Below, piece after piece: positions 103 to 52,051 of a stretch of 64,000 nucleotides of DNA (position 1 is its first letter; every line of letters begins with the position of its first letter). Made by a program: the position numbers and the translations under genes. Below the pieces are notes generated by a model. That model did not search any database. It saw only the letters and a program-made list of their open reading frames with translations, and was not told the DNA's origin. Source of the DNA: Schmidtea nova (Eukaryota). The stretch is taken from assembly GCA_044892505.1 (NCBI GenBank), contig CM097883.1, positions 183,644,001-183,708,000 of the forward strand, written 5' to 3'.

Positions 103-3100
103 GTAAATTAACCAGGATAAATGATGAATATTGTTACCATTTAGATATCCAAACAAATGATGGTGACAGTCTATCCGGTCAAACTGCTCTTTGAGCAGGC
201 ACTGAATTTGGAAAATGATGTGCAAAATATTGATAATGCACTTATGAAAATCAGCAAATATAGGCAGACAAATCTCACAGATAAAAAGCACGATATTCTC
301 GTTTTTATAAGGTAAAATATTAAAATTTATCTATTCAATAAACTCAGTAAAATCAGATAATTTTCGATAATTAATTGAGAAATTTTTCAATTATTAATAT
401 GATTTATGAGGACGATTAATTTCTTGATCGAAAATGTTTTCTGAAGAATTAATTGCAGTTTTTTTCTCGTGCAATTTTATAAGCCGTTCAGCCTTCACTC
501 TGGAAATTTGAATAATTGTTTCATAAATTTTCGTTTTGCAATTGTAAATTTTGATTTTTAAAAATAAAGTAATATTTTAAATTTGGCTATTAATAATATT
601 CAATTAAGATTAATTTATATTCTTTAGAAGTCCTTAATATGCTTCACAATTGATGGAATATTTGCAATTTCTTTTCTCTTTATTTACAAATGAATTGAAA
701 TTATCGAAAAAAAAATGATGAAACGAAGAGAAAATAAAATTTATTGCTTTAATGAAATAAATTATATATAAATAAATTATATATATATGTGTGTGTGTGT
801 GTGTACGTGTCTTGATTTGGTATATCGTTTTACTTATAATGGTTGCAATGCCATAAACATTGGAAAGACTATACGTCATCTCTGTATACGAGTTCAAGAG
901 CATGCCACAAAAACTGGAAATAACAATATTATTGAGCATAATAAGACATAAAAGAAGAAAATTCAATTATAAAATATTGTATATGGGTTTTAAAATCTAT
1001 TATAAACGTATAAATTGTGAGGCTTTGAATATAAAATCATTTAATCATAAAATAAATATTCAAAATTTAATCCCTATGTGCATTTCAGAGGCTTTAAATT
1101 ATTTTACTAGGATTATTAAAAGTCTAATTTGATTTTAAAATTTGATTATGTGTTTGCTATTAAATCTATAAATATGATCAGGTTTTTATTTGTTTCGAAC
1201 TTATTTATTATCTGAAGAAAACAACTGAGCTATTAAAAATATTTTTTTGAAAATGATGTTCTTTTATTTATTTGAATAACTTTCCATTATGATAACATTA
1301 CCTGGTCAGTCATTTTGACTGGCAAAACATTTATACTGATTCTTTCTATTTAAAAAAATACATTAGGGTAAATGAAGATTTAATCATCAACACTTGTCTA
1401 AATAAATAAATTTTGGAAATAGAATTTCCCAGCAGTTTTAATGTTAAAAATGCAACGAATACTTTATTTTGATTTTGAAAATTAACAAAAATTTAAAAAG
1501 GATGGTAGAATTTTTAGATTAACTTTATAAAGGGTATGGGAGCGTGTAATAAAGTATTATTATTTTATAAATGAATTTATTGAAATAATTTATTTTACGA
1601 AAATTTTCTTGAACTTCGAAATTTATATTTAGTGGTTTATCATTTTCTTACTATTCTGGAAGAACTTTCATGAAAGGAATGTGCCATTATAAGAAGTCAG
1701 TAGCGCTCATTACTGTAAGTATTAGAATTTTTACTTTTATTTTCTTTATTACTTTGAAAACATAATTTTTATAATTCTTTTCGTAATAGTTTTGAAACAA
1801 AAACTGGAGTCCTTGTTGCCATATAAATCAAATTTTTAAATTACTTCCAGTTTATTATTTATTTTTATTCTTTGAACAAGACCAACAATGTTGTGATATT
1901 GGCTGATAATGAAAATGACAATTGGACTGCATATTTATTTCACTCTTAAAATTTTATTTTATCAAAAAATGATATTTCTTATAGTATATAAATATTAAAG
2001 ATATAAGATGTAGATGATACCGTCCTTTTTACAAATGATGAAAACCCAACAATAACAGGCCATTTTAGAAGCGGGTGAGCTACACTTTCAGTGCTATAAC
2101 TGCCCACCCAGACCAGACCATTTTACTGTCATTAAATTGATTTAAACTTTATTTGAGAATACGATGCAAGTTATTTCCTCTCAAATTATGAAAACAACAG
2201 CTAAATACGTTTTGATTCTTTTCGATCTATTGCATTAGCCACATGCAGGGCCAATATATTTCCTTGTTCGATGATCGTGATCTCTGACCTTATCTGCAAT
2301 TTTATGTTTCATAAATTACAGTTTTCACGTGTACTGAATGAATATTTTTCATCCAATGTAAGTGGTATCATCGATTTTTCCCTCATTGATATTATGATGC
2401 TAAAAGGGTCGTGGTGGGAAAGAACAAAAGTCTGGCATATTATTTATTAGTAATATTACTAATAATACTAATAATACATTTACAAAATAATCAATACCAA
2501 CAAAACATCATTGAACGATTCGTTGAATTCCTAAACTACCAGCTGATTAAATCATTGACATTATTGGCATTATTGTGTGTACCTTTTATTANNNNNNNNN
2601 NNNNNNNNNNNNNNNNNNNNNNNNNNNNNNNNNNNNNNNNNNNNNNNNNNNNNNNNNNNNNNNNNNNNNNNNNNNNNNNNNNNNNNNNNNNNNNNNNNNN
2701 NNNNNNNNNNNNNNNNNNNNNNNNNNNNNNNNNNNNNNNNNNNNNNNNNNNNNNNNNNNNNNNNNNNNTATTATTTATGGACACATTCCAAATTCTATTA
2801 AGATAAAGTATGAGAGAGAAACAATAAAAATTAATTAATTAATTAAAAAACAAGATAAACAACTAATTAAAAATAAATAAAAATAAATATTAAATAAATA
2901 TCATAATTATTTTTTTGTTTCACTTTTGATCTTTTTTTAATAATAATATCAATAATTTCCATAATGGTAAGACTATAGATTAAAATTTCTTTTTTAAACG
3001 AGTACAAAAGTTTTCGGCACAGCCTTTATCAAATGTGACACACTTGATAGAGGCTGTGCCGAAAAATTGTGTACTTGTTTAAAAAAGAAATTTTAATCTT

Positions 3101-6100
3101 GTTGGATCCACCATTTGGTCAACAGTTAGATGTAAAAATAATAATAATAAGAAATAAATAGGAACAAATTAATATGAATATAATTACGAGAAATATCAGT
3201 AAAAACGAATTAAAAGTAATAAAAAATATTAATTTAATATCAAAAATTAGAAGAAAGTAAATGGAAAATATAAATGTTAAAGAAAAAATAATATTTAAAG
3301 CAAAATAAATAAGTAATAAAGAAAAAAAGAATTAATAAAATTCTTAAACCAAAACAAGAAAAGTTAACAATTTACAACAAAATCAATCGATTTTAGCTTT
3401 AATAAAATTTATTATTTGATGATCAGCTTCAACTTTGATCTGATCAGTATATATACTGATGCAGATCCAGACAAATTGAATGCTTATATGCTTATATGCT
3501 TATATGCTTTTATGACTTTAAGATTTGAAAATAATCATTAGGTATGAGTATTTTGTTTTTTTTTATTGTATGATTTTATCATTATGATTTTCTGACATTG
3601 CCATTGTGGTTATTTGCATTAAATTAATAAAATTTTTGAATATATTTTATTTTCTTTGAGATTTATTAAGCTTCTTCCACTGTGTAATCGGTGGAAGGAG
3701 ACGAAGGTATTCATATGTGTATTTATATTTTATTGAGCTTCTTCCACCGTGTAATCGGTGGAAGGAGACAACATTATTATATTATATTAACAATTAGGTA
3801 CAAGTATATTTTTTTTTGAGCAATTTTTGGTCGAGCTTCTTCCACTGTGTAAACGGTGGAAGGAGGCGAATTTATATTATATAGAGTAGTTATAGTAGAT
3901 ATACGTATGATTCAAGGGGCTCCGATCACCGTGAAATCGGTGAAATGGAGGCATACTGTGCCGAGTAGAATGACTGCTCCGTACAGTTAGGCCGTCCCAC
4001 TGGTGTAAAGGCGCCGCAAGGAGAGTAGGAATTTTTACTAACCATGATCACTAATAATTTTTATCACTGGATAGTATAACCAGTTGAAGTTTTATGTTAT
4101 AATAGAGTTGATTCTTATGAGTTTGAGTTGAGTTTGATTTTATTTTTGAGTCTAGAATAGATGCGATTATTATTGGTCAAATTTCACAATTGGATTAATA
4201 GAATGTTACCCTATTTTTCGATTGTCACATCTGGGGTTTGTGGGCATAAAGCGGCAGATACAACGTCTAGGAAATCATACAAAATACACCGTTAAATACT
4301 ATAATATCAAAAATCGATAACTTGAATAGCGTAGTGATCTACCACGCAAGTAGCATAGCACCAATAGGCTATAGGATCAAATATTCAACACATATAATTA
4401 ATATAATTGATTATCCTGAACCCTGTACATAGGGCAGTGGATCTTAGTTAATTTAAATAATTTCTTATCCTGATTGCTGTATGTAGCACAGGCATGAATA
4501 AATAAAATATATTATGAAACAAAGGTATCTGATCGCTGTATATAGCGACAGTGTTAAACGACAGAATGTGTTTTCATTTCTCTTCCTAGTTAAAATATGA
4601 AATCTGTAAAAATTCGGATCCAATCAAATTTATATTAATGGATAACTTTGATTCACAGAAAATGGCTAATACTCAAGCAGAATTGGACAAGGCGTGGCGC
4701 ATTATCCGCAGCCTCGAAAAGGAAATGTTGCGAAAATCCGAAAAAATAAAAGAGGCCGATGTTCTGATCTCAAATTTAAAGAAAAGCTGGTTCAGTCCAG
4801 ATCAAATGAAAGCGCAAATCCTCAAAACTCAACGCTCACAGCGAGCAAACAGCGAAATACAGATGGAACTGGATGCGACCAAGATGGAGCTGAAGAAATG
4901 CCTAAAATCTGTGACAGCTTCCTATCTCAATCAAGAGTTAAGGCAACTCATCAGACCAATTACCTATCAGCATTGGGCTGACGAGAAAGCAGGATGTTCA
5001 AAGGGAACGAACACAGATGAACCATCTCAGGTTCGAACAATAACAGTAGCAACCACACCAAAGAGCACGACCAATCCAGAAGGTAAAAAGAAGAAGAAGA
5101 GTAAGATGGGCGCGCGTCAGCGTCGCTGGAAGAAGCAAGTGCTCCAGCAATTGACACAACATTCGAAAGAAGTGCCCGAGATTGATCTAACAAGGGATTT
5201 TGCAATAACGGATGAAGACATCATTAAATATTTTGAATGATGACTTGAAAATTTTTAGTGTTATTAAATTGTGTATAAAAATTTAGTTTTGATTATAATT
5301 TTTGTTTTGTATTTATTTTAGTGTAAAGTATATGAAAATAATGTGATTTATTAAAAATTTAAAATAGTTTAAATGAAAATATAGATTATAATTAACAATA
5401 GGATTGACATAAAAATAATGAATAATAAGAGCATTAAAGAGATAACATATTGTAATTGATTAAAAATTATTTGTTGATATTGTAAAGAAAAGGGCTGAAA
5501 GAAAAGTTGAGAATTGAAATAAATTGTAAAGAAAGGGGGCTAAAAGAAACATTGAAATGAAAGATAATGAATGCGGATAGAGTAAAGTAAAGCGTAAGTC
5601 CTTCTATCGGCAGCGAGACGAACCCGTGAACATAAATGGGGAGTAGTTTTAGCAATAGAGCTCACCTGCCCATCATTGTTCAAACACCTTGCCCATTTCC
5701 AACTCGATTATTACTGGGAAATGATCGAGGGTGCTCGTGTGATATGTAAGCATTTTATGTTAGGTCTTGGATGGAGGAATCCCTAGAGCGTTTAATTCAT
5801 ATTTTATATTTTTGTTTTAACCCATCCAAAAACCACAACAATCTATAGTCTTACCATTATGGAAATTATTGATATTAATATTAAATAAATAAATAATAAT
5901 AAAAATGATGAATAGAAATAAATAATATTAAATAGTTAATTAATTAAAAAATTATTAAAAATATCTTTTAGCTACTGTCTTTAAATAAATAGTAAGAAGG
6001 GTACCAAAAAGTGGGTCTGTGTGCTTACATTTCACTGCTAATAAATCTAAAAAATAATTCTAATAAATTATCACTATTACTAAAAAACCAATAATAAATG

Positions 6101-9100
6101 AAATATTAGCGCTATATAATGCAAAAGTCATACTATCAAATGAGAAACCTTATTTGTTGAAAAATATATTCAATTATTTTTCATATTATTAATGTTATTA
6201 TAGTATTAATTAAAATGAACATTATTAAATATGATTCTGGTTACTGTCATTGTTCAGTTTTTATTCTTCAAAAATTATTGTTTTAAGTAAATAATTTTGT
6301 ATTTTTCACATATATGCTAATAATCTTATACTGAGGAAATTAAAATTAATAAATTAAAGAAAATTTAATATCTTCTAAGACTACAGTTGCAATATATGCC
6401 GCTCTTGTTAAACGATAAAAGAAGTAAAAATATAATGAAAGCTTATTAACATTAGGTTTTTTTTATTTAGGATTTTTATTCAAAGTCCGCATTGCGAACT
6501 GCATCTATAATTGCTCATGAACTCGCCCATAGTCTTGGGATTGAACATGATTCCGTTCATTGTGAATGCCTTTACAAGTCAACCAAATGTATTATGTCAG
6601 AGAAAATCACAAAGTATATTATTGTTTGTTAAATGAAAATATTTCAAAATTATGAAATTTATAAAATATTAATGAAATTTAATTAAAATATTTTCTGAAA
6701 TTCTTCAGAATAAAAATAGTTTAAATAAAAATTTAAAAAATTAAAATTTGGAATTGCTAACGTGGACCGAAAGATTTATAAAATGACCTTGATAAAATTA
6801 GAAATATTGATTAAATTTGCGGTAGATTTTTAAATTATTAATGTTATTGTTAAATAGCAGTAAAATATTTTATTTTGTTCCCAATTTGTTAACTATTTTC
6901 AATTTCTTTTCTCATCATTTCCATAGAAATATAGATCAAATTATTATAAAATTATAGAAACGTTGTGCAGAAAAAATTTGTAAAATTAGAATTTATGATT
7001 ATTTTATATAGAAATGAAAAAAAATTATCATTTACCCTCCCTGAGTTCAAGCATAAATTTTAATAAATCAACTATTTGAACAACCTATGATAGTTACACT
7101 ATATATAGTTTAATTCCCAATACATAAAAAAATTTCCTTATACCACCCCATTTTTTGTTATTTTTCCAAAATGCTACACGAATGGGTTTTTGAGGTGCTG
7201 CATCTCTACTGCGCACCCTAATTATTAATGATTCTATGAGCGAAAATTATTATTCTAGATATTTCTAAAATGAATTTGAATTTGTAGTATAAATACGTCA
7301 ATTTATACATCAATCAATCAATACGGCAAAACAATTAAAATAACATTTTTCTTTTATTTTTCTTTTGTTTTTTTTCTTTTTTTATTTCTTTGTAAATTTT
7401 CTAGAAGATTCTATTTCTTATCTATCTATAAATTGTGATCTTGATAATGAATCTTTCAATGAAGAAATTATTTAACCGACATTGAGACTGAAGTTATTGT
7501 TGGTAATCAAGAGGCATCGAATAAAAAGATGTCCAAGAAATATACACTGATGAGGTTGGCATTTGTGCTGATTATTTTTCTAATTCTTTTGTTTATAAAT
7601 TAAGTAGTGTTATTTGTTAACTATTCTAGAATTTCTTCATTGCTCTTTGTGTTGTTCTGGTTTATTTTTTCAAACTTCTTTGGTGAAATGACACTTATCT
7701 TGAAAAGATTGTCTGTCTTCTCTCTATTCGAATTTCAGAACGTAGTCAATTAGTGGCAATTATCGTTGTTTTCAATCATATTGATGTTTATAAATATGGG
7801 AATGTGAGAATTTTGAGTGCGTGTGTTAATTTCAATTTTTGTGATTTAATGAAATTAGCAGATTTAATTTTTGGCAATTCTCATATTTTTCTTTTGATCT
7901 TTTTTTATACTCGTTAAATTTTTCAAATGTCATTAGTGAAATGCCACATACTTTTCAGAAGACTGGCCGTTTTCTCTGTACTCTAGTTTTAGAGTATTGT
8001 CAACTGATTATGATGGGTTTGGTATTCTATCATACTGTTGTTCAAATATGAAAATATTTATAATATATTCTTAGTAAAAATATTTTTTTAAATGATTTTT
8101 TTAAGATTAGATTTTTAAAATTCTAAAATAGTTCTATCTTTTTAAAAGTTTGAATGATTTTAAATAAAATTTTATATTACATTTCTTTAAAATCGATATA
8201 TTTGATTTATATTGAAATGTTTGACTGAAAGGTACTTGATAATGAGAAGGAGATTTTCGAAATACATTGTGCAGAATATATATATTTATATTGGCGTTTG
8301 TTTTTAATTATTTTATTGTCACATTTGTTGCATTATGTATTAAAAATTATACCCCAGCCTACCAAATGTCTCCAGTCAGGCAGTTATTTACATATTGCAG
8401 TTTAAAATGAACGTCTGCAGTGCAAATATGAACAGCAATGGGAACAAAAGTCACAAATACCTTCAACATGCTGCGAACGCACATGTACACACGCATGCAC
8501 TTACACACACAGAATATGACTACTCACAGCAGACACGCAACAGTGATAACAGTGAGTCAAGTTAATGAAGGATTGTCATTTTCTTAGAATATGGCTACTC
8601 GGAGAGAGCTTACAGACTTTCAGAAAGGCATTATTTACGGATGCTACCTTTGTGGAAAAGTCAGAGTGAATCTGCTGCATCCCGAAGGAACTATTAACTA
8701 CTTCTTGAAGAAGTACCGCCAGGAGCAGACACATGTCAAAAAGCAACGTTCAGGCCACCCTAAGCTTATGAACATTCGTGAACAACGGCAGCTGAAATGA
8801 CTTGTGGTGGCTCATCATCGGTTCCAGATGAAAGGTAATATTAAGAAGTACTAACTCTCTCACCACTAAAGAAATTCAGTATTCGTATGTGTTTGTGACA
8901 TATGTTCCCATTGCTGATCATTATAAACTGCAATATGTAAATAACTGCCTGACTGGAGACTTTTGGTAGGCCGGAGTATTTGTTTAAATTATGGCTTTAC
9001 TTATTTTAGTTAGTAATTTCATAAATTATAGCCTGAAAGATGAATTCCATCACAAGACAGGTAAATTATCTAGTTAATAAGATTTAAGCATCTTCTACTA

Positions 9101-18100: not shown

Positions 18101-21100
18101 GCTAATTCAGCATGTCAACTTTTGTTTGGAATGGATTTCCAATCAGCGAGAGAAGAGTGCTATTTTGAAAATATGAAAGGCACTTCATTTCAAGGACATT
18201 GTGGATATAGACCAAATATCACTAAGTCTTATATTGAATTGGAATATCAGTACTCTTATTGTTCACGCAAGTTGGTTATATTTCATTTATTACAAATAAA
18301 TTTTCAAAGTTTCGTAACAAAAAGAGCATTTTTCATAAATAATACAAAAATAATATAATATCATTTTCAGTGAGGTGCTCAGAAACCTCCATGCGGAAAT
18401 CAAAAAAATGTGAAATCCTCATATGACAGATTTATTTTTATTGCTTATCTTGTTAATATAATATGCAGACTATCTGCTTGAGGGGCTCGTAGTAATGGTG
18501 CACTTAGGGTGAAGGTTTTGGGTCTCAATCCCCCGTGGAAGGATTTGATCATAAAACCTTTAAAATTTGATAACTTTTACGAGTAGCATTTATTATAAAC
18601 TATAATAAGAAGCTCGGTGATTTTTTGACTCCCAATAATTCTGTAATTGAAGATAATGTAGTATTTCTAGAAGATAATGGATCCCGGAGCTTTAATTACA
18701 ATTATTTGAAGCCTTATGTATACGATAACAGAGTTTAAAACGTATTGAGAATAGAGTTCAATTGATCTTGAATCAAAGTGTTGAATCAAAAATATATTTA
18801 CTTTTTAACGTATTATTTGTGAAATGAGAAGATTATGTGACCTTTAACTCACAATGCTTAAGAAAAATGATCTTGCACTATATACCCTTATTCAATTTTG
18901 TTCTGACAGCTATATAAATAATATACTTTCATTTCATTATTTATCACTTTATAAATGAGTACAATGTTTACAATATCACTACAGTTTTACAGGCCGTCAT
19001 ATTGCCGGTCTAGCGTGGTGATTTTATTTTCAAAAAAGAAAAAATAATCCATCCAAAAAAGTGTTTATTTTTCAGTATGTGAGCCTCGTTACTTTTATTT
19101 GCAATTACATTGCACTCGGTTTCTTCTTTAGACAATAGACATAATATTCGTAAATTATATTCATTAAAACATATTATTCAAAAAATATTCATCAATAATA
19201 TTATTTGAAATATTTTTCTGAAGCATTGATAATTTTTATGAGCTTTGATTCAAACATTCTGTAATTCAACATACTGATTAAATTTTATATTTTCAATTTT
19301 ATTTATATTTTCAATTTTATTTTATATTTGAAATTAAAATTTTAAACTCTCATTTTTTGAATTTCATAAAGTTTTATAAACTTAATTTTTAAATCAATAT
19401 TTATTAAACTTATTTTATCAAATTTTTAAATATTTATATTAACACCTCACATCCCCCTTTTTTAAATCTTTCATCTTTTCGATATTTTATATCATGGTTT
19501 TGTCTTCTTCACCTCCTAAGAAATAGCTTCTTTCGTGAATTTTCTTTATTATTGTATATGGTCCTTCAAATTTTTCCTGGTCTTTATTTCGAATCTCACC
19601 CTTTATTAATACAGCCTCTCCTTTATTGAAATTTCTTATTGTTTTGATTTCTTTTGCGCTTGTTACTTCAATTTACTTGCTTTTTATCTTTCTTTCATTA
19701 TTTATTGAAGTACTGCTATACCATTTTGATCTGGTAATTCTCCTTACAAAAATTATTCCTGCCGGACTTGCTCCAATTGTTTTCTGTTTTGTCGCATTTT
19801 AGGTATATTCAATTTCCTGTAATATCTCTCCAAATTATTTTTGCTTTGTTATCTTAAAGACTCGTTAATATAATCACAGATTGTGCGAAACTGTCTTTCT
19901 ATTAATCCATTGGTGTTATGGTGATATGGATTTGAAAACACTATTTCGATTCCTGTTGACTTGGCCAATTCTTTTATATTGTTTGACTCAAAACATTTCC
20001 CACAGTCTACATACAGTTCTTTCGGTGCTCTTTATATCCATTTGTTTAGCAAAGTTTTCAATATTGTTTTTTCATCTTGTTTAGCTCTAACAGACAGAGA
20101 AATGTATTTACTGTAATGTTCAGTGATACCACATATGTATCTTTTTCTATTGATTGTTTCCTTCATTGGTTCACATATATCCATAATGATCATCTCACTG
20201 AATGCTGCTGAAAAATCACCATCTTCAATTCGCACATTCTCATTTGACTGATCCAATCTCTCAGCCACACACGATACATCTGCAATACCTGGAAAAGATA
20301 CATCAGTCTTGTCAATTTCATGACCTCCCAGCATCCCTATTACGTCCATTCCTAAGATCATATAAACATTTACCGGTAGATTCATCAACGAGAAACAATC
20401 ATCACTCAATAATTTACCATCAACAATCAGTTGAACGTTCACATCACACATACATCTGACTAGTGATCCATCCGCAGTCATGATACTCCCATTCCTTATA
20501 AATCGTTTCTTCGCAATTCTGGCTGACACGACTGATTTGGAACATCCCGAGTCGATCAATGCTTTCACGGACTCCCCATTGATCATGACAGAAATAAACT
20601 GCAACGCCATTATGTTCGTGCTGGAGTAGACGCTGGCGCATGCGTTACTCCTTTTCCATTTCCCGACTCTGAATTTTTGGTGCACTCCTTTGCAATGTAG
20701 CCCTCTTCTTCACATCGCCAACACTTCTTTCTTTGTTTCTTAAAGCAAATTTCTTCTAAATGGCCATTCTTTCCGCAATATAAACATTTCTTTTGCTTGT
20801 CTTGTTTTCCCACAACAGCCAAACATAGTTCCATAGTGTCGCAGTTTACTAAAACACGGGACTGTTTCAAAACATCAACAAGAGACATCTGCTGAATCTT
20901 GGCATTGGATCGTAACTGTTGTGACGTTGCTGTTGGCAAACCCATAATGAATGCGCTTTTAATTAAAATCTCATTATCTATCTTGGCCAATGATGCTAAG
21001 TTTTTGAGATCATTCAAATATACATCGACTGGCTCATTGCTCTACGGAAGTTATATTGAATGTTTACGTTGTTTAAATATTCAGAGTTGGCAGAATTATT

Positions 21101-24100
21101 TAATTTAATAAAGTTTTAATATTGTAATCTTATTTTATTATTATTCATTGGTTTTAGATTTTATATATAACAATAAAAATATAACATGGCGTCACGAACT
21201 GAAAAAGAATACTTGCAGGAATACTTATTTAAAGATAAGTTATCAAAATTAATTATATTCAAGAAGCGAGGAACCAACGTTAAAATTGAAGATCATTTAA
21301 TTCTTTTCAAAAGTTTTGTTGATCAGTTTGCCAAACACAACTTGGTAACGGAGGAAGAAAAAATTAAAGTATTTTTAAAATACTTTGACGAAGAAATAGT
21401 TAAAGAGATCGAATGCTTAGGAGATATTAGCACAACTAGGACCATAGACTGGTACGAAGAAAAGATTCTAAAAATCGTAGAGATTAAAAGGTCAAAGACC
21501 TCAATAATTATAGATATTCTCGGCGACACCAGACAAGAAAGAGATGAGACTGTAGTAGATTTTGCAAAAAGAGTAAGGATGCGATGCCTAAGTTACGAAG
21601 GAGAAAAAGAAAAAATGATGATACATACCTTTATAGAAGGTTTGAGAAACCAAACTCTTTCGGTAGCCTTGAAGATCAGAGAGCCAAAAACGTTAGAAGA
21701 AGCTATAAAAGAGATAAAAATGGAGCATGTTGGCGTAAAAGTAAAAGAAGACGAGTATAATTAAGTTAGAAAACTGGCGACAACGGACGAAGGGACAATA
21801 AATATCTTAAAAAGAGAAATTGATAGGTTGAACAAGAATATTGAAGAATTGAGGAAGGAACAATTGAGAAAACCGAATAAAAATCCGAGAGAAGTAAGAG
21901 AAGACATTTCTTCCTATCAGCAAAACGTTACATGTTTTAAATGTAACAAGGAAGGGTATATAGCGAGATTTTGCCTTAAAAAAGATGACAGTGGAAACAT
22001 TGATACAAGGACGTGCTATAAGTGCGGAAAAAGGGGACATATAGCAGCAAATTGCAAAATTGGTACAAATAGGATGAATGTGATTAAATGTTACGAATGC
22101 GGTGGTGGTCATTTGGCTAGATATTGTGACAAGAGAAATAAATTCAGATATTTCCAAGAAGAAGATGGAGAGGAAGAGGATGGTTCAGCGAGAGGATCAA
22201 AAACCGATTCTGAAGATGACAAGCATATAAATAATATAACAGAAGTAAGATCTGATAAAGGGACGAAGAGACCAAATGAAAATTTAGAAGAAAAATATGC
22301 AAATTATATAAACGGTGAAGGGGAAAAACCAAAGAAACTGTTACAAAAATACCAGTCTACAGTTATCTCTAGTAGCAGGCCGGAAAAAGCGAGGAATAAA
22401 CCAATAACTGAATGTTATATTGGACATCAGATGGTTAAAGTTATGTTTGATACGGGTGCAGATTTAAATGTTATTAGCCAGGAGTTGACAGATAAACTAA
22501 TAAACGCAAATCCAACCATAAAGGTGTATAATTCAAAAACAAGAGTTACATGTGCCTATTGGAAGCTCAATCGAATGTGCAGGTAAAATCCAGCTAAACA
22601 TAGCAATAGGACAGATTGTGACAAGTCATGTATTTGACATTATGCCAAATATATTCCCACATGTTTATATCGGGATAAGAAGTATGAAGAAATATGGAAT
22701 TATCAATAATGCACCAGAAGACTGCATAGAGATCCAAGGAATTAGGTTGCCATTCTTATCAAAAACTATTCCAGCGGCTTCTTTAAACGAATCCCAACTG
22801 TATTAGAGAGTCGTAATACGGTTAAAGGGAGAGAAGAGGCTTGGGGGGACGGTTATCAGGATTATTATAGAGTTATTGTATCAAGTAACGTACAGATTTA
22901 AACAGTCGTAGAGTATTTTATCAGAGGAATGGCAATAGATAAGCAGAACAAGAGATTAAAGAATCTTAATCAAAGTTGTGTGTTTAATGGTGAAAGAGTC
23001 AAAATGGCAGAGAGAAATTTTGATAAGTGATTACGTGCTTAAAGTTGATGAAGGATATGTATTAGTAAAAATTGATAAGATGGAAGGCGGTATTAAACAA
23101 TTGCATGTAGGAACCACTTTAGGTTACAAAGAAAGATTTTACGATAAAATGGCAGAAAAGGCTAATATTGGAAGTATGTCATCATTAGAACAGCGAAGAG
23201 AAATCACGACCATCGATAAAATATTACGAAGCATAGAAGATTCTTTAGATCATTCTATTAAATATAGCGAAAGAAAGGAGTTAGTGAAAACAATAGAAGA
23301 AAATAAGGATGTTTTTAGTAAATATAAAATGGATATTGGGAAAAGTACATCACTATCTCATGAAATTGACACTGGGAACGCTCGGCCAATTGCTTTTAAA
23401 CCGAGGAAGGTACCATTAGGTCTGGAGGAAGAGGTTGACCACATGGTACAAGATTTATTAAGAGCTGGAATTGTGAGACCGAGCAAGTCAGCGTGGAATT
23501 TTCCGATTGTGGTTGTTAGGAAAACGAATGGTGATATTAGAATGTGCGTCGATTATAGGGCACTGAACGCAAAGACGGCAAGACCAATCTTTCCAATACC
23601 AGCTGCGGAAGATCTTTTTGATACACTTGGAGGAGCAAAGTTTTTCTCTACATTAGATCTATCAAGTGGTTACTACCAAGTACCAATAAAAGAAGGTGAC
23701 ATAGAGAAGACAGCTTTTAGCACAAAGTATGGACAATTCGAATTTACACGAATGCCATTTGGATTATGTTCCGCGCCGGCCACTTTTCAAAAGCTTATGA
23801 ACATGGTCTTGAGAAATGAAAATTGGATTAAGTGTGTCGTATATTTGGATGATGTTCTTATATTTGGGAGAACCATCGAAGAATATAATCAAAGATTGAA
23901 CACTGTATTACGCCGAATTAAAGAGTCAGGACTGAAATTATCACCAGCTAAGTGTTCATTTTTAAAAACAGAAGTTAATTATTTAGGACATGTCATCAAT
24001 GAGAATTGGGTAAAAACTGACCCAGAGAAAATTGAGAGTATACGATCATGGAAAATGCCAACATGTAAAAAAGAATTGCAGACCTTCTTAGGATTTTGCA

Positions 24101-27100
24101 ATTATTACCGTAGATTTATAAAAATTTATGCAGCGACATCAGAAAAATTGAGTTCAATGTTAAAGAGTGAAAATAATTTTGTGTGGAATGAAGATAGAAA
24201 AGGAGCATTTTACGAACTTAAAAGCAGACTGTCAACGCCACCAGTGTTGGCCTTGCCAAATAAGGAAGGCGAATATATACTGGACACAGACGCTTCGCAC
24301 AATAGTATGGGAGCCGTTTTGTCACAGAGACAAAATGGAGAAGAAAGAGTTTTGTGTTATGCATCAAAAACCATGAGTAAGAGTCAGAGAAAATATTGTA
24401 TAACAAGAAAAGAACTATTGACAATATATACGTTTGTGCTGAAATTTAAACATTATTTGATGGGATCAAAGTTTTTAGTGAGAACGGACCACCAAGCGCT
24501 GAAATGGTTATTGAAATGGGATAATCCAAACACATCACAATACTGTGTTTGGAGAGCCGAACTAGAAGTCTACGACATGGTTGTCGAATATAGAAAGGGC
24601 GAAGAACACATAAGTGCTGATGCGATGTCCAGGTTACCTCCATGTGAACAATGCTTACTTAAGCATAAAGAACCGATGAAGCGTCGAAACGTAAAAGTAT
24701 ACGATGAATTAATAGATGTAAAAAGGACAGGAAACGACGATCTAGAATCAGAAAGGGTTTTGTGCGAACTGAAAGTACATGAACATGATTGGGGACAAGA
24801 CGATGATGTCGACATACAAACCATAATTAAAAGGATGAAACGTTCAGATTCTGAAAATGACAGAAACGTAGAAGAGATAAGAAGAGGTAGCAAAGAATTA
24901 CAAACAATATGGGCACACAGAAAAAAACTAAGGATCAGGGGCGATCTACTTTATATCCAGGAAGATAAAGAATACAGATTGATACTCCCGAAATTAAAGA
25001 GGAAAGAATTAATAATACAATTCCACAGTTTTCTAGGACATCCCGGAATCGAAAAAACCTATCGAATAATAAAGAATGAATATTATTGGCTTAATATGGA
25101 GTCTGATATATCAGAAGTAATAGGAAAATGTCAAGAATGCGCACACAACAAAAATAGAAACGGTAGAATAAGGGCACCATTTCAAAGCATAATTGGAGAA
25201 AAACCTTTTCAGATAATAGCAATGGACATAACAGGACCGTTCAAAACAACACAGAAAGGGTTTAGGTATATACTGGGTATAATCGATTACTTTTCGAAAT
25301 ATATAAGTTTAATACCAATGAGAAATATCGAGACAGAGAATATTCCAGAAGCGGTGTGGTCGCAGTGGATTTCAAAATTTGGAGCACCAGAACAAATACA
25401 TTCAGATTGTAGAAGTAATTTTCAATCAAGATTGTTTGCCGAATACTGTAAAATATTAGGAATTAGGAAGACTTTTACCTCACCTTACTACCCACAGAGT
25501 GATGGACTGGTAGAACGACTATTTGGAACTGCAAAAAGTATGATTGCAGCAGTGTTAGAAGAGAAGAAGAGCAAAGACTGGAGTGTAGTATTACCAGTAA
25601 TAGAGTTTGGATTAAGAACTACAATACAAAAATCAACGAATTATTCACCATATGAAATAGTATTTGGAAATCAAGCAAGATTACCCATATCAGCAATAAA
25701 GGTTAATACGAGACATTTTCAAGACTATGACGATTACGTCCAACAGCTGCAACTAAATTTATCAGATATTCACAAGAAAGTACGAGAAAATATGGATAGA
25801 CAAAGAGAGTGTATCGTCGCAAGATATAATCAGAATCGATGGCACAAAGAATTGATAGTAGGAGATAAGGTAATGATAAAGAATGAAGACAGGAGGGGTT
25901 TCGAGAAGAAGTATATAGGGCCATTCATAATAGAAGAAATAATGGATAAATGGACCTATGTGTTATATAGTGACAAAGCTAAAAAAAGAATAAGAAGAAA
26001 TTATAATCAAATAAAAGTAGTAAATGACGAGGGAGATTCTTGTAGAGTAAAGCCAACCAACACTAGTATTTGGTCAAGGGAACCGAAGACCAATTTAAAA
26101 CCGACGAGAAGATACCCATTACGGACGACGAGAAATCAGAAACCTAAGTACCGTTCGGTTGCCAGCGAGGGGATGTGATATAATTAATGAATTAATTATA
26201 TGCATAAGTTATATTGAATGTTTACGTTGTTTAAATATTCAGAGTTGGCAGAATTATTTAATTTAATAAAGTTTTAATATTGTAATCTTATTTTATTATT
26301 ATTCATTGGTTTTAGATTTCATATATAACAATAAAAATATTACAGTCATATGCTTGGAACATATCTATGGAATAGACATCGATCAGGGCATGTTCGATCT
26401 TCAATGCGTTGCCCTTGTCTTCCGCACTCAAATGCTGATATACTGCGAAAGCTGGTCTATCTAGGTATAACGGAATAATTGATTCTAAATCCACGATTTT
26501 CTGAATTTTTGCCACTAGCTTCACTTTCTGAATCCACTGTTGAACGTCACCTTCTCCTCTGAAAATAGGGATCATATTGTTCATATCAAATTATTCTCCA
26601 TTCAATCTACCAAAATGATTTCACTATCCAAATCTTGACAAAAACTACACTGCTTAGTTTTTGTAACTCTTTCATTTTTTAAAAACTAAATAGAAATTTC
26701 AAATATTTTATATGAAAAACAGATGAGATGACTCAAGTTTTGATTGATTTCAGGTCTACAATTTTTCTGTTTAGATGAAATTCATTGTTATACTATTTTA
26801 TTTTTCTTTTAACGATTTTATCGACCTTCCTTCTTCACGATTGTTTCTTTACTTAATTTCGGTAAATTTAAGGTTCGTTGAATAATCGTTTTTTTCAGTG
26901 CTATCTTCATTGATTTATTTATCCATCGTACTCAACTAAGCGACCCATAAATACAATATTATTCAAGTTATTTAGAGATAAATTACTATTTATAGTGTCA
27001 GTAATTATTTAATTACTATTTTGANNNNNNNNNNNNNNNNNNNNNNNNNNNNNNNNNNNNNNNNNNNNNNNNNNNNNNNNNNNNNNNNNNNNNNNNNNNN

Positions 27101-30852: not shown

Positions 30853-31744
30853 AGCAGTAGAATGTGAGTCAATCAGATATAGGTCAAGGCCCCCTCTAGA
30901 ATTTTTTTATGTAGGTCAATTTAAGAACATTTTACCGTCAAATCTTTTGCTTAAGGGCACCTTAGGTGTAAAATGTATGCCAAGGTTGATTTAAGGTCAT
31001 TTTAAGGTAATTTTAGATGAAATTTATGGTTTAAGGGCACTTTAAGGATAAAAAAGAATCAAGGTCGTTTTAAGGACACTTTAAGGAAAATAGGTAAAGT
31101 TCGTATTTCAGGTCACGATGAGGAAAATTAAGTAGGTCAAATATGTTTAAAGTGAATTTAATGTTAAATTAAGGAGGTCAAATACAATTTTCAAAATTTT
31201 TCTGTCAGAATTAAATACGTCGATTTCAGGTCAGGATGAGGACAAATTAAGTAGGTTGATAATAATAATAAATTTTTGTATGTCAAAATTAAGTAGGTCA
31301 AATATAATTTTCGAAATTTTTCTAAGTCAGAATAAGGAAGGCTATTAAAAATTTTCGAAATTAATCAAAGTAAGAATTATGTAGATTAATAATAATTTTC
31401 TAATATTTCTATGTCAGAATTTAGTAGGTTAATAATAAATTTCGAAATTTTTCCAAGTCAGAATTAAGTAGGTCACTTTAAGGATACTTTAAACTCCACA
31501 AAGTAGGGCAAACATAATTTTCAAAAAGTTTATGTCAGAAATAAGTAGGTCGAATATAATAATTTTCGATGTCAGAATTAAGTAGCTCAAAAATAAAAAA
31601 AATTTGAAAATGTTTTCTAAGTAAGAATTAACTACTAAGTGACACAACATTTTGTGACTAACATGGCATTGTAAGTACAAGTTTAATAAAGGCAATGCAA
31701 TCAAGCTGAAATATTAACAAGGTAAGTAAAGAGTAATTTGATTC

Positions 31745-34105: not shown

Positions 34106-34446
34106 TTAGATTTATATTATCAATCATGTTAATGAAATCTTAAGTAAAGTTTTTGCGTTTGATAAATGCTAGAAAATCGCAGAAACTAAAAAAACAAAGA
34201 AATTTGGAGAAAAAACCAATTGCAAAGAATAGTTATAAACAACCGAAAAAATTAATTATGGATAATATTTCGCAGAATAATCGCATTAAAAATACTTTAA
34301 AACCAAAACAAATACATCATCGTAGTTTCCCATTTTTTACTTAAAGCCCCAAGTATTAGAAGAATGAGTATTTTACAATCATTTCCTAATTACGTTATTG
34401 ATGATTTATTAGTAGGGGAAAGTGAGCGCACAGCCCCACTTTTTTT

Positions 34447-34905
34447 CAACTAGCAACGGTTGCTAGGGTAAATACACACATCAAGATATTCCTCAATTCA
34501 GGTGATGCCAGGGTGAACGTGCACACACATCAATATATATATATATATATATATATTCCCCGATGAACCTGTTGCCAGGGTAAACACACACACATCAAAA
34601 TATTCCTCGAGACAGGTATTGCTAAGGTAAGCACACACATTACTATATAATCACCGGGGAGATGTTGCTAAGGTAAATACACACATCAAGATATTCCTCA
34701 ATGCAGGTGTTGCTAGGGTAAACACACATCAATATATATTCACCGAGGATCCTGTTGCCAGGGTTAACACACACATCAATATATTCCTCGAGGCAGTTAT
34801 TGCTAAGGTAAGCACACACATTAATATATAATTACCGGGAAGATATTGCTAGGGTAAATACGCACATTAAAGTGTAGTGCATTGGAATCTGTTGCTAAGA
34901 TAAAC
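34447..34905. repeat. Subterminal tandem array (~45-50-bp units, GTTGCTAGGGTAAAYACACACATCAA), left arm
   Basis: About ten diverged units; mirrored, with extra units, at ~43735-44390. Confidence 0.9.
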
Positions 34906-37766
34906 ACGCATATTTTTAAAAATCATATTTAAAAAACATATTTTTAAAAATAAATAATAAAAATGTATGTTATTGTTATAATAATAAAAATAGTATTTGT
35001 AATGAATAAATAATATTATAAATAATAATAACAATAACAATATTAAAAATTTTACAAATAACAATAAAATATTATAAGAATAACAATATTATTACAAAAA
35101 TAGAAATATTAATAATACTTATGTTATTGTTATTAATGTAAATATTAGAATAANNNNNNNNNNNNNNNNNNNNNNNNNNNNNNNNNNNNNNNNNNNNNNN
35201 NNNNNNNNNNNNNNNNNNNNNNNNNNNNNNNNNNNNNNNNNNNNNNNNNNNNNNNNNNNNNNNNNNNNNNNNNNNNNNNNNACAATATTATTACAAAAAT
35301 AACAATAGAAATACTAATGTTATTGTTAATAATATTAATATAAGACTAATGATTAAAATAATGNNNNNNNNNNNNNNNNNNNNNNNNNNNNNNNNNNNNN
35401 NNNNNNNNNNNNNNNNNNNNNNNNNNNNNNNNNNNNNNNNNNNNNNNNNNNNNNNNNNNNNNNNNNNNNNNNNNNNNNNNNNNNNNNNNNNNNNNNNNNN
35501 NNNNNNNNNNNNNNNNNNNNNNNNNNNNNNNNNNNNNNNNNNNNNNNNNNNNNNNNNNNNNNNNNNNNNNNNNNNNNNNNNNNNNNNNNNNNNNNNNNNN
35601 NNNNNNNNNNNNNNNNNNNNNNNNNNNNAAATATTATTATGAAAAATAATAATAAAAATAATACGTAAAATATTAAAAGAAAAATAATAATAAAAAAAAA
35701 ATTAATAATAAAAATATTAAAGTATTTGTTATTAATATCAATAATAATTATTACATATAAATAATAATGTTAAAAACAATAATAATGGTAATAATGAATT
35801 AATAATAGTAATAATGGATGAATAATAATGTTAAAAATAATAATAATTATGGTAATAATGNNNNNNNNNNNNNNNNNNNNNNNNNNNNNNNNNNNNNNNN
35901 NNNNNNNNNNNNNNNNNNNNNNNNNNNNNNNNNNNNNNNNNNNNNNNNNNNNNNNNNNNNNNNNNNNNNNNNNNNNNNNNNNNNNNNNNNNNNNNNNNNN
36001 NNNNNNNNNNNNNNNNNNNNNNNNNNNNNNNNNNNNNNNNNNNNNNNNNNNNNNNNNNNNNNNNNNNNNNNNNNNNAAAATATTAATAGAAAAATTAATA
36101 ATAGAAATGGTAATGCCATTGTTTTTAATAACAATAATGATAATAAAAATAATAATAAATNNNNNNNNNNNNNNNNNNNNNNNNNNNNNNNNNNNNNNNN
36201 NNNNNNNNNNNNNNNNNNNNNNNNNNNNNNNNNNNNNNNNNNNNNNNNNNNNNNNNNNNNNNNNNNNNNNNNNNNNNNNNNNNNNNNNNNNNNNNNNNNN
36301 NNNNNNNNNNNNNNNNNNNNNNNNNNNNNNNNNNNNNNNNNNNNNNNNNNNNNNNNNNNNNNNNNNNNNNNNNNNNNNNNNNNNNNNNNNNNNNNNNNNN
36401 NNNAATTTGATTATTTAAATACACTTAAGAATAATAAGAATAATATTTATACAGATAATTTAATTATATATAAAATATCACAAGAATAGCATTATTATTA
36501 CAAAAATAACAATAGTATAATAAATTAGTGTTAACGTTATTGTTGTTATAAAAAAAGATAATAATAAAATCATAGTAAAATAATAATCATAATAAAAAAA
36601 AAATAAGAAGAATAAGAAGAATAAGAAGAATAATAAGAAAAAAAATAAGAAAAAAAAACAATAAGAAAAATAATAATAATAAAAGATTATTAATAAAAAA
36701 TGTTATTGTTATTAATATAAGAATAAGAATAATAATGATAATGATAAAATAATAAGAAAAATTATAATTATAAAAAATTATTAATAAAAATGTTATTGTT
36801 ATTAATATAATAATAAAAATTATAATTATAATGATAAATAAATAAAGAATAATAATAATAATAATAAAAAATAATAAAAATAATAATGGTAATAATGTTA
36901 TTAATAAAATTTTAATTATTAAAAATAAAAATAATAATGATAATAATAATAATTTTTACTAATTATATTTAATAATATATTATTATTTATTAAAAGAACT
37001 TCTTTAAAAATTAATTGATATTAAAGTTCTTGTTATAAGATCATTATCTAATAATTAATATAAAATATTTAATAATAATTACAATAATAAAAATTTAAGT
37101 AAATAATTTTAATATTATGAAAAATAATAATAATTGATTTCAATTATTATATTCTTAACTAGAATTGTTTTAATAATTAGTAAACACAAAGATGTAAAAT
37201 TTAAATTATTTACAAGTAATTTAAAAATATTAATTTACTATAATAATTTTCATATAGAACATATTATTTGCTATGATAGAAAATAAATTATTTATTAATA
37301 ATTAATTTACAAAAACCTTAATTACTAAAAAATTTGTAAAAAATAAAACAATAAGTAATATTAATCAATATTCAAATTAATTTTATATTCAAATTAATTA
37401 ATTAATTATTATAAAAAATTAGAATAATTATAATTAAAACTAGAATTGTTTTAATAATTAGTTATAAAATAAAAATTCAAATTCAAAAATTGTAAATAAT
37501 TTTCAAAAATTAGTAAACACTACAAAACTAATTAAAAAATAATTAATAATTTAAATAATATAGTTAATTATTTTAAGTTCTCATTAGTATTTATTAACTT
37601 ATCTATGATAAACATTACAAATCTCTTTGAATAATAAATAAAGATTATCCGTTAAATTACAAAATTGATAAAGAAAACTAATTATTAAATAATTTAAATT
37701 AATATTTATATACAAAGGTAATTAATTATAAATTGCAATCATTAAATAAATTATTAAAATACTTAC

Positions 37767-37937
37767 AGTTACTTTCTTTTCTCTTTTCATCGTTAAATTT
37801 ATTTTCTTTTGGATTATCCATTGTTTCAGATGTTTCAACATTGTAACCAATAAAGTTGTTCATATTGTTGTCGACATCGTTGTTGTAATCATTGATCATG
37901 GTAATATCCATATTGTTGATGTTGTTGTTCATTTTAT
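37767..37937 (-). CDS. Spliced Asn-rich exon at the centre of the foldback element (MNNNINNMD...KRKESN)
   Basis: 48-nt GTAAG...TTTTAG intron at 37985-37938 upstream; ATG at 37932; GTAAGT donor at 37766. Confidence 0.5.
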
Positions 37938-38330
37938 CTAAAATAAGTTGATTATTTAAAAAATTTAAAACAAAAATTAACTTACCAAATTTAGGTTGCA
38001 GTAAAAAGTGATTCTCAAATGAAAAACTATTGTTTATATACTAAATTCAAAACTTTTTAAACAATCAAATTCGAGGAAACATACGCACACGTTTGTAAAT
38101 ACCACAGTGTAATTTATTTTTACAATTAAACTTTTTAAAAATTATTAAACACATAATTTATTGTCATAAATATATGTCATCATTTAATGATAAATATCAA
38201 TTATTATTAAAATACAATGTAATAAATTAAGATTAATTTTAAAGTTAAATTACACTAATAAATTATAAAAATTATTACAAGTAATTAAAATCAAATAAAA
38301 AAAAAAGTTTAATTATTCGATAAATTGTAA

Positions 38331-38420
38331 ATTAATTGAAATAAAAATTAATTAATTGAAATAAAAATTAATTAATTGAAATAAAAATTAATTAATTAAA
38401 ATAAAAATTAATTAATTAAA
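38331..38420. repeat. 20-bp tandem repeat (AATTAATTGAAATAAAAATT) x4-5 in the foldback spacer
   Basis: Direct reading of the sequence. Confidence 0.85.
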
Positions 38421-41252: not shown

Positions 41253-41283
<31 letters not shown>

Positions 41284-41292
41284 TCAATATTA

Positions 41293-41327
<35 letters not shown>

Positions 41328-44300: not shown

Positions 44301-44704
44301 ATATATTGATGTGTGTGCACGTTCACCCTGACAACACCTGAATTGAGGAATATCTTGATGTGTGTATTTACCCTAGCAACAGTTGCTAGTTGAAAAAAGT
44401 GGGGCTGTGCGCTCACTTTCTCCTACTTTTATTGAAAAGTTTAATTAAAGTTGTTAGAGGTAAAATCAATATAAGTGAATCTAATAGAAAAGTTTTGAAC
44501 AAACACGATAAACCATTGTTATCACTCGTAAAAACAAAAAATAGAAAACTAATGCGTAAAATAATATATAAACAACAAGGAAGATTTATTGCAGCATTGT
44601 TACCATTATCATTATTGGGATGTGCTGATTTACTAGGAAAACGGTCATAAACAATCGGACAATCGTTGCCTAATCTTATTTTAAACTTTAAATCTTCTTT
44701 TTTA

Positions 44705-46852: not shown

Positions 46853-47260
46853 ATGATTTGCGGTAAATCTGAATTATGTATTTTTGATTGACCATCACCC
46901 CAAGCTGTTATTGAATATGGAGTATTTGAAGATGTATTTCCAATGAATTCTATTACAGATAGTAGAAATGATGTGAAATTTTACATTAACGGTTCTCAAA
47001 CCGAATATTTAGATTTGAACCATACTTTATTATGCGTTACTGTCAAGGTTGCAGATAAAGATAAAATTAAATTAGCTGATGCGAGTGATGTAGTACCAAA
47101 TAATTACCTGTTTCATACACTCTTCAAAGATGCGATTCCTAGATTTAATAATATAAAAATTGAGGGTGGAAACAATACATATGCACACAAGGCAATAATC
47201 GAAACTATTTTAAATTATACGAGTGATGCAAAAGAAACTTGTATTTCTGACCTAAAGTAA
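46853..47260 (+). pseudogene. Maverick major capsid protein, N-terminal part only (cut off by the right TIR)
   Basis: CGKSELCIF, FYINGSQTEYLDLNHTLL, NNYLFHTLF and YAHKAIIETILNY motifs. Confidence 0.9.
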
Positions 47261-50009: not shown

Positions 50010-52051
50010 TGTTGGATCCACCATTTGGTCCACATTTAACATAAAAATAATAATAAGAAGAAATAAATAAGACTAAATTAAAATTAATATAATTGCGAGA
50101 AATTTCAGTAAAAACGAATTAAAAGTAATAAAAGATATGAAGAATATTGAAAAATTAGAAGAAATAGAATTGAAACTGTCAAAACTGTTAAGGAAAATGA
50201 TATTTAATTATATTTAAATAATAAGAAAGTGAAAAAAATAAGTAATAAAGAAAAAGAATTAATAAAATTTCTGTAAATTAAAACAAGAAAATGAAAATCA
50301 TATTTGTTGATAAAATTGATTTTATTTTTAATAAAATTACATTGATGACCATCAGATTGATGCTGATTGGTCAATGAACTGATCTGGTCAGTATAAATAC
50401 TGATCCAGATTCAGATTAAATTAATGATTTAAGTGTTTGAATTTTGACATAAATTTTGAGTTTATGCTTCAGAAGAATTTTTGTTTTCAAGAAAATTTAT
50501 AAAGGTATGCAGTTTGATATTTTTATTGTTATTGTTATATAATTCTATTACGATTTTTCTGTCATTGCATTAATTCATTTAATAAAATTTTATGAATAAT
50601 TCTAGTTATATTTTTTTTAATTTTTATTTGTTCAAGCTTCTTCCACTGTGTAATCGGTGGAAGGAGACAAGGGTATTAGATTATTTATATTATTCAGGAT
50701 TATATTTTGGTCGAGCTTCTTTCACTGTGTAATCGGTGGAAGGAGGCGAATTTATATTATATATTGTATTTAAGTATAGATATGTATTATTATGCAAGGG
50801 GGCTCCTGAACATCGTGAAATCGATGAAAGGAGGCATACTGTGCCGAGTAGAAGACTGCTCCGTACAGTTAGGCCGCCCAACTGGTATAAAGTGCCACTA
50901 GGAAGGTAGGATTTTACTAACCATAAATGCTAACATTTTTTATCACTGGATAGTATAACCAGTTGAAGTTTGATTTTGAGATACTAATTGATTTGATTAT
51001 TATCGAGTTTACTTCACCTTTGGATTAACAGAATGTTACCCTATTTTTACGATTGTCACATCTGGGGTTTGTTGGCATAAAGCGGCTGATATAAAGTCTA
51101 GAAATAAATATAAAATACACCTTTGAACGAAATAATACAAGAAATCGATAACTTTAATAGCGTAGTTCAGTGATCTACCACACAAATAGAGCATCAGCAA
51201 TGGATCAAATATTCAACACAGATAATTCATAATGAAATGTAATATATTATCCTGAACCCTGTACATAGGGCAGTAGATCTTAGTTATTTTTAATAATTTA
51301 TTATCCTGAGTGCTGTACATAGCACCGGCGTGAATAAATGAAATAAATTATCAAATGAATGTATCTGATCGCTGTACATAGCGACAGTGTTGAAAATATA
51401 ATATGTATATTATTTCTTTTCCTAAATTAGAAATTAATAATCGTAGAAATTATGAGAATTATTCAACCAAAAACCAAGTTCATATTGATAAACCATCTTG
51501 AATTCTAGAAAAATGTCAATCAAATCAGTAACTCTTAAATCAGAATTAGACAAGGCTTGGCGTATTATCCGCAGCCTTGAGAAGGAGATATCGAATAAAT
51601 CCGAAAGAATAAAAGAAGCCGACATCACCATAGCGAAGTTACAGAAGAGCTGGTTTAGCCCAGACCAAATGAAGGCACAACTCCTCAAGAATCAACGCTC
51701 TCGACAAGCGAATGATAATATAAAATGGAGCTAGAAGCAACAAAAATGGAGTTGAAAAAATGCTTAAAATCGGTAACGGCTTCTTACCTCAATCAAGAGT
51801 TGAAACAGCTCATACGTCCTATCACGTATCAGCATTGGTCTGAAGAGAAGTCAGGCTGTTCGAAAGGGACAAATACGGATGAACCATCTCAGGTTCGAGT
51901 AATCCCAGTACAAACTACACCAAAAAGCATAGAAAATCCGGAGGTTAAAAAGAAGAAAAACAAGATGGGCGCACGTCAGCGTCGTTGGAAAAAGCAAGTC
52001 CTACAACAATTGATACATCATTCAAAAGAAATACCGGAAATCGACTTAACT
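50010..52051 (+). mobile_element. Second, diverged LTR-A copy, 3'-truncated
   Basis: Same TGTTGGATCCACCATTTGGTC start, hairpin arrays and ORF; homology ends at a junction with the Tigger ORF. Confidence 0.88.
51498..52051 (+). pseudogene. LTR-A ORF copy 2 (1-nt frameshift at ~51722; runs in frame into the transposase start)
   Basis: ELDKAWRIIRSLEKE...KMGARQRRWKKQVLQQL. Confidence 0.85.

Follow-up and report, generated by a model that had tools for sequence, protein, structure and literature searches.

Protein-RNA switches that act on unspliced RNA are well known in complex retroviruses. Few examples come from LTR elements of invertebrates, and CERV of C. elegans is the only one that we found. 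An open reading frame (ORF) inside an LTR is known from MMTV, whose sag ORF is located in U3, and HIV TAR and the MS2 operator are bulged hairpins that bind proteins. The locus described here would not be expected to resemble these in sequence. Rev-like proteins have a basic motif, an export signal, and an oligomerisation domain, and the response elements of beta- and deltaretroviruses lie near or in U3 (PMC5568270). CERV, a product of the Ty3/gypsy element Cer1, is translated from a spliced mRNA and is required for the export of unspliced RNA (PMC10309623). Arrays of short hairpin-forming repeats are found inside the LTRs of maize Sireviruses, which are plant Copia elements (PMC4728375). In plant LTR elements, extra ORFs are placed in the internal region, according to the available part of a review.

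We analyzed a 64,000-nt stretch of flatworm DNA (the window), in which three bulged hairpins in tandem are followed by an orphan ORF within the same LTR (Table 1). In common with the HTLV Rex/RxRE, HERV-K Rec/RcRE, and MMTV Rem/RmRE systems, this LTR has a small basic protein with a predicted helix, structured RNA in the LTR region, and an ORF that is probably expressed through splicing that would remove the structure. Unlike them, it has separate hairpins of 22-24 nt instead of one large branched element, its ORF lies wholly within the LTR, the host is a flatworm, and the protein has no match in sequence or fold. The protein also has no export-signal consensus (none of eight patterns matches the copy A protein), and we therefore do not class it as Rev-like. 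As proposed here, it would resemble CERV in being encoded by an invertebrate LTR retrotransposon and made from a spliced mRNA. Whereas the Sirevirus repeats are symmetric palindromes upstream of the TATA box, the flatworm units are bulged, follow a TATA-like box, and precede the ORF, and an array further upstream (array I) is strand-biased. The planarian giant Gypsy element Burro, from a probably related host group, is similar in its long LTRs and accessory ORFs (PMC6431247). The available parts of the descriptions of Burro, of planarian genomes, and of Macrostomum LTR elements mention neither an LTR-internal ORF nor a hairpin array. The array is not reported in the literature that we searched; subscription papers, Repbase entries, and supplements may describe the family. 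Overall, the cis-element is real and belongs to a known kind, has no earlier match, and adjoins a selected orphan gene.

Table 1 Features of the solo LTR and its surroundings (positions in the window)
Feature	Position	Strand	Remarks
Palindromic repeat, target of the LTR insertion	2931..3099, resumes 5841-5889		
Target-site duplication ATCT, 4-bp	left 3096..3099, right 5841-5844	+	
Solo LTR, copy A	3100..5840	+	2,741 bp; ends TGTTG...CAACA
TATA-like box 3448 within inverted repeat	3436..3468	+	same layout in copy B (~50381-50411); putative promoter
Candidate splice donor AG|GTATG at 3542	3539..3549	+	copy B 50505
Hairpin array I	3671..3865	+	three 12-pair hairpins with UGUAAW loop (two in copy B)
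Further conserved hairpins	3914..4085	+	two pairs changed on both sides between copies
Bulged hairpin unit 1	4416..4437	+	copy B 51252-51273
Bulged hairpin unit 2	4469..4492	+	copy B 51306-51328
AATAAA in 83% AT spacer	4497..4502	+	conserved, not distinctive
Bulged hairpin unit 3	4529..4551	+	copy B 51365-51387
Pyrimidine tract and AG, candidate splice acceptor	4569..4589	+	copy B 51430
Orphan ORF, 200 aa	4638..5240	+	predicted long N-terminal helices, linker, basic helix
Basic block, residues 150-167	5085..5138	+	net charge +11; nearly identical in copy B
Copy B	50010..~52055	+	~75% identical to copy A; ORF frameshift near 51720

The interval 3100-5840 is a solo LTR with a 4-bp target duplication, as follows from its termini, the ATCT flanks, the palindromic empty site, and contigs that skip the interval. 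The termini TGTTGGA...CACAACA fit the integrase att motif TGTTRNR...YNYAACA, described as the terminal inverted repeat motif of LTRs (PMC3601003). Removal of the element and one ATCT joins the flanks into a gap-free palindrome of 213 bp, and contigs jump from 3083/3086 to 5841 in four of four public runs (one study). The sequence-only reading had called the element an LTR, and the termini, the att motif, and the target duplication bear this out. The family is multi-copy and dispersed: two copies (A and B) lie within the window, and 3,709-7,975 contigs per run, flanks included, show 80-100% likeness and cover all 30 bins (one study). The 3' part of copy B is missing, and this copy ends at a junction with a Tigger-type transposase gene. 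Because Gypsy elements make up over 90% of the LTR elements of Dugesia and Schmidtea (according to the available part of a preprint), Gypsy is the likely class of the element. We did not find its internal region, and the contig loose ends listed include no paired-LTR/gag-pol junction. The identity of a Ginger DNA transposon was considered and dropped, since the inverted ends are just 5 bp long.

The near-perfect 213-bp palindrome at the insertion site is probably a high-copy foldback or MITE family of its own, and many contigs carry its empty form. Rfam gave weak matches of this flanking palindrome to microRNA models only, far below the gathering score and due to palindromy, and it gave none for copy B. 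Within the LTR, the summed contig depth over 5546-5737 is about ten times that of the rest; contig depth is no valid ranking of the parts. This stretch contains GTAAGT (5594), CATAAA (5631), and small hairpins; it may recur in many families or form a repeat of its own. Shuffled sequences fold as well as the final 341 bases of the LTR.

The ORF is under strong purifying selection. Over 167 codons, copies A and B differ with dN 0.11 and dS of about 2, i.e., a dN/dS of about 0.05, which is rough with dS near saturation; the differences by codon position are 19/15/80. Six of the eight ORF differences listed from contigs of the public runs are also at third positions, and the two copies have a common ORF start at about 4662. 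A shallow structure model of the protein (3-row alignment, pTM 0.25) predicts helices at residues 2-50 and 54-119, a disordered linker, and a helix at 159-178 over the basic block. The basic helix (residues 150-178) has more Lys than Arg, and the 3.5-residue (heptad) periodicity of the protein is weak. The basic block may be nothing more than a nuclear localisation signal. A word search with the ORF found no homologue, and a search of viral contigs found no match. There was one sub-threshold match to Pfam, and the best results were 0.89 in the ESM Atlas, E 0.14 against the PDB, and E 0.03 against PHROGs; no viral fold was matched at E 0.001. One match among 1.84 billion representative proteins was rejected as a repeat protein.

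The way in which this ORF would be expressed bears on the three hairpins. Between the TATA-like box at 3448 and the ORF there are 23 ATGs in copy A and 17 in copy B, so plain scanning from the TATA to the ORF would be blocked. The candidate acceptor, located between hairpin 3 and the start codon, ranks first among 179 AG in copy A and among 130 in copy B, and the donor at 3542 ranks first among 127 GT in copy A and is tied for second among 90 in copy B, by splice-site scores that are ad hoc and biased toward T-rich DNA. The stretch that holds the acceptor is identical between the copies at just 51 of 86 positions. The acceptor after hairpin 3, together with the upstream donor and TATA, changes the likely context of the hairpins: judged by these sequence signals, all three are probably within an intron and kept just in unspliced RNA. 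If the promoter is at 3448, the donor at 3542 would be spliced to the acceptor at 4589, and an intron of 1,048 nt (926 in copy B) would enclose every hairpin. Alternatively, the promoter may be near the 3' end, and a donor such as GTAAGT at 5594 would be spliced across the element to 4589 of the 3' LTR. The ORF of MMTV sag sits in U3, and the latter model would place the flatworm ORF likewise. The ORF mRNA might also arise from a donor-like site near 4025, or through trans-splicing, a process known in flatworms (PMC4558846). In all splicing models the ORF mRNA would be without the three hairpins and the unspliced RNA would have them. As a separate observation, the inverted repeat centred on the TATA-like box (3420-3470 and 50340-50415) differs in sequence between the copies with its symmetry kept.

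All three bulged hairpins proposed in the sequence-only reading are present, with three counterparts in copy B (51252..51387). Their common form is a lower stem of three pairs, a bulge starting with A, an upper stem of 4-5 pairs ending CU/AG, and a GUAYRU loop. A pattern derived from the units has five matches against 0.00 expected (100 shuffles), in a partly circular test, and a covariance model built from three units recovers the other three at E 1e-4 to 4e-3. No further units were detected in the window, the next match of the model having E 0.8. Over the six units 33 of 36 cells are paired, and three of the six pairs are changed on both sides. Both the paired share and the covariation score were reached by one of 500 shuffles, and the count of doubly changed pairs by 93 of 500; the six rows are three orthologous pairs, so that n is about three independent unit types, and the covariation comes from two copies. 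The two variable pairs of the upper stem are Watson-Crick in all six units, compared with three of 37 chance matches in viral contigs, in agreement with the earlier claim that the stems vary between units and stay paired. No core pair of the upper stem is changed on both sides between orthologous units. In unit 2, the changes between copies A and B shift the register; the lower stem is still paired, with one pair being U.G, which is valid on the + strand only.

The units are identical between the copies at 64 of 69 positions, with the synonymous sites of the ORF near saturation (pS 0.70). They are more conserved than all flanks together (64/69 vs 139/189, p 5e-4) and not significantly more conserved than the two inner spacers (64/69 vs 56/67, p 0.12); block conservation or exchange between subfamilies could therefore contribute to this identity. 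The neighbouring stretches drop to 50-59% identity. Among 40 listed of 420 contig differences none falls within the three hairpins, and the list is too selected to count as support. Folding of the 146-nt array is weak, and no better on the + strand (z -1.8 and -1.35) than on the - strand (z -2.5 and -3.6). Units 1 and 2 of copy A are predicted to cross-pair, with a hairpin pair probability of about 0.13; in copy B the predicted probability of the Watson-Crick stem pairs is at least 0.96. The G.U pairs that close the loops have a predicted probability of about 0.7. These closing pairs had been taken as favouring + strand RNA, and we do not retain this point: G.U merely turns a six-base loop into a four-base one and is hardly strand-selective. 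Transitions in TACG yield three products, TACA, TATG, and TATA, and these are the loop variants of the units; CpG decay or a Y-R constraint may account for this.

Over the array, Rfam yielded nothing at E up to 10 in copy A or copy B, the exact pattern of unit 1 has no match in viral contigs or metagenomes, and a degenerate unit pattern gave 37 single matches and no array in viral contigs. Several known kinds of signal were considered and dropped: the bulged A as a branch point (it is 57-62 nt from the acceptor, with another AG between), microRNA precursors (the hairpins are too short), and the iron-responsive element and Roquin and Smaug sites (their loops differ). We consider it probable that the units form a functional nucleic-acid structure. 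The earlier description of them as hairpins of the protein-binding type also agrees with our results, since they are conserved in structure and look like docking sites.

Array I, upstream of the three units, gives an indication of the strand. The region 3640-4120 folds with z -8.2 and its counterpart in copy B with z -4.7. Ten of 60 cells of array I are G.U on the + strand and none is A.C; its two variable pairs each have a change on a single side and are still paired. This G.U/A.C asymmetry and the neighbouring doubly changed pairs, not the G.U closers, favour + strand RNA. The exact pattern of array I has no metagenome match. Between array I and the units, the stretch 4200-4400 has conserved blocks (79-86% identity) without + strand folding, which are candidate DNA-binding sites.

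The explanation that we prefer, with a probability of about 0.4, is that the LTR's own basic protein docks at the units, which it recognises by shape, and that these sites set the fate of the unspliced RNA (splicing, poly(A) use, export). The array would be a tandem set of small RNA sites recognised by shape and loop. Lying directly 5' of the acceptor of the LTR's own ORF, it would be present solely in unspliced or not-yet-spliced RNA. The ORF product, translated from spliced mRNA, would bind the array via its basic helix; the bound protein would restrain splicing or the use of the nearby AAUAAA, or license export, and full-length genomic RNA would accumulate. Such a feedback switch would work like Rev/Rex-type systems without being a member of them. 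We infer here the ligand, + strand transcription, and the use of 4589 as the acceptor, either with the donor at 3542 that follows the TATA at 3448 or with one in the other LTR. The sequence-only reading had already named the element's own basic protein as a possible ligand, and with an ORF dN/dS of about 0.05 this protein appears a serious candidate. We counted in favour of docking the conserved pairing, the near-identity of the units between the copies, the + strand bias of array I, the acceptor position, the selection on the ORF, the conserved basic block with its predicted helix, and the precedents of CERV and the retroviral response elements, and against it the three independent unit types, the similar conservation of the inner spacers, the weak folding, the cross-pairing in copy A, the lack of an export consensus, the weak heptad periodicity, and the ad hoc splice scores.

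A wider version of the docking explanation, possible and rather doubtful, is that the whole LTR is a self-contained feedback cassette. It would consist of the TATA at 3448, a short first exon, a 1-kb intron with two different hairpin arrays, and an orphan protein; by binding to the hairpins, the protein would determine if the LTR RNA is spliced, cut at a poly(A) site, or kept whole as a genome. This would be an independently evolved Rev/Tat-like switch, with the protein and its target both encoded in a single LTR of an invertebrate retrotransposon, and intact in each solo LTR. If true, a cassette contained in the LTR would show a de novo origin of such control, and solo LTRs could supply a trans-acting regulator. 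A small orphan protein and a 23-nt target are also an easily testable pair. If host proteins alone bind the units, the array would be an ordinary LTR cis-element.

The same structural evidence and the predicted intronic position would also suit packaging or dimerisation, in which the element's Gag/nucleocapsid reads the hairpins and their place in an intron limits packaging to unspliced RNA. Bulged-A stem-loops are capsid-binding signals in MS2 and in the yeast L-A virus, and units 1 and 2 can cross-pair, possibly between two RNAs. However, most packaging signals are found outside the LTR, downstream of the primer-binding site; we regard this explanation as unlikely. Quite unlikely is also a role at the DNA level, with the units serving the ORF as an internal promoter or enhancer, as imperfect palindromes that a dimeric transcription factor recognises or that fold in single-stranded DNA during reverse transcription. 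As DNA, single units do fold on either strand (-2.5 to -5.9 kcal/mol), the - strand of the array folds as well as the +, and the cis-regulatory part of Sirevirus LTRs contains arrays of palindromes (PMC4728375). Yet a factor that reads sequence would not preserve the CC/GG, TG/CA, and CG/CG complementarity or the one-sided bulge, and the ten G.U against no A.C cells of array I point to RNA of the + strand. Finally, the units might have no function: one small palindrome may have been duplicated in tandem, and recent exchange between the copies may have kept its remnants alike. Their common 5' flank TATC, inner spacers nearly as conserved as the units, and the weak folding would fit such an origin, but the stems have diverged between units with complementarity kept, and the identity of 50-59% in the neighbouring stretches also speaks against it. 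We hold this to be very unlikely.

Two host factors had been proposed as ligands in the sequence-only reading, and neither of them is retained. A Pumilio (PUF) protein of the host would melt the loops and repress or destabilise the element RNA. The 8-mer UGUA(C/U)AUA is, as earlier counted, in five of the six units, and in this it agrees with the Pumilio element UGUAHAUA (10.1101/403006); here, unlike there, it closes into a stem and is lost in one unit, and the bulge and stems have no PUF role. Opening the 8-mer costs 2.4 kcal/mol, compared with a median of 2.7 for 27 of the 28 other UGUAHAUA sites in the window (one was dropped because of a nearby N). The expectation that the hairpins bury the site beyond background is thus ruled out, and burial does not exclude Pumilio binding. 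Structure can also tune the binding of PUM2 (PMC6521599). On the other side, UGUAHAUA is common in this AT-rich window (33 occurrences, 20 expected), unit 2 of copy A lacks it and keeps the fold, and the bulge and lower stem are left unexplained. If the sites are intronic they would be absent from mRNA, the target of PUF proteins. All six units have C or U at position 5, where 21 of the 28 other sites have A; PUM2 accepts A, C, and U alike there (10.1101/403006). PUM2 binding is modelled with an unpaired 8-mer required, and bases 1 and 8 are here paired with a predicted probability of about 0.97. We judge Pumilio binding improbable, and the same holds for CFIm, which would use the UGUA motifs around the AAUAAA at 4497 to set a poly(A) site of the LTR, close to hairpin 3, that would compete with the splice acceptor at 4589. 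All six units contain UGUA, as do the open loops of array I, there is a GU/U-rich stretch after hairpin 3, and in the LTRs of animal Metaviridae a GT-rich stretch comes after AATAAA (PMC3601003). The AAUAAA between units 2 and 3 is indeed conserved, as had been noted, but it is unremarkable, since seven of the ten AATAAA in the aligned part of the LTR are conserved; a poly(A) switch has no specific support. Moreover, the U-rich stretch doubles as the pyrimidine tract of the acceptor, the UG of UGUA is predicted to be paired, another AATAAA is available at 5518 downstream of the ORF, and CFIm would leave the bulge and stems unexplained. A poly(A) role is nevertheless compatible with docking of the LTR's own protein, because the array straddles the AAUAAA.

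Besides the LTR copies, the AT-rich eukaryotic DNA of the window carries a Ty3/gypsy pol, a Tigger-type transposase, and a metalloprotease exon. The matches of a dehydrogenase gene, given below, place the host among the flatworms, and the base composition suggests a planarian. The Ty3/gypsy element (21048-26344) has direct repeats of 139 bp (98.6% identical), an open pol, and an interrupted gag region, and a second protease fragment is located at 20032-20610 (minus strand). The interval 34441-44398, very AT-rich and gapped, is a nested inverted duplication that spans about 10 kb and is flanked by homologous ORF fragments (30858-31332 and 47245-47708); it could be an artefact of assembly or stem from Polinton-like relics, as their long terminal inverted repeats, and five ORFs flanking it have no Pfam match. 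The exon at 6477-6614 encodes a HExxHxxGxxHD zinc motif and a Met-turn of an ADAM-like metalloprotease, and this gene may harbour copy A of the solo LTR in an intron. An intronless short-chain dehydrogenase gene on the minus strand (49075-49908) is arranged head to head with copy B, some 100 bp away from its start; the named best matches of the gene are in flukes at 33-38%, with further matches at 85, 59, and 56%.
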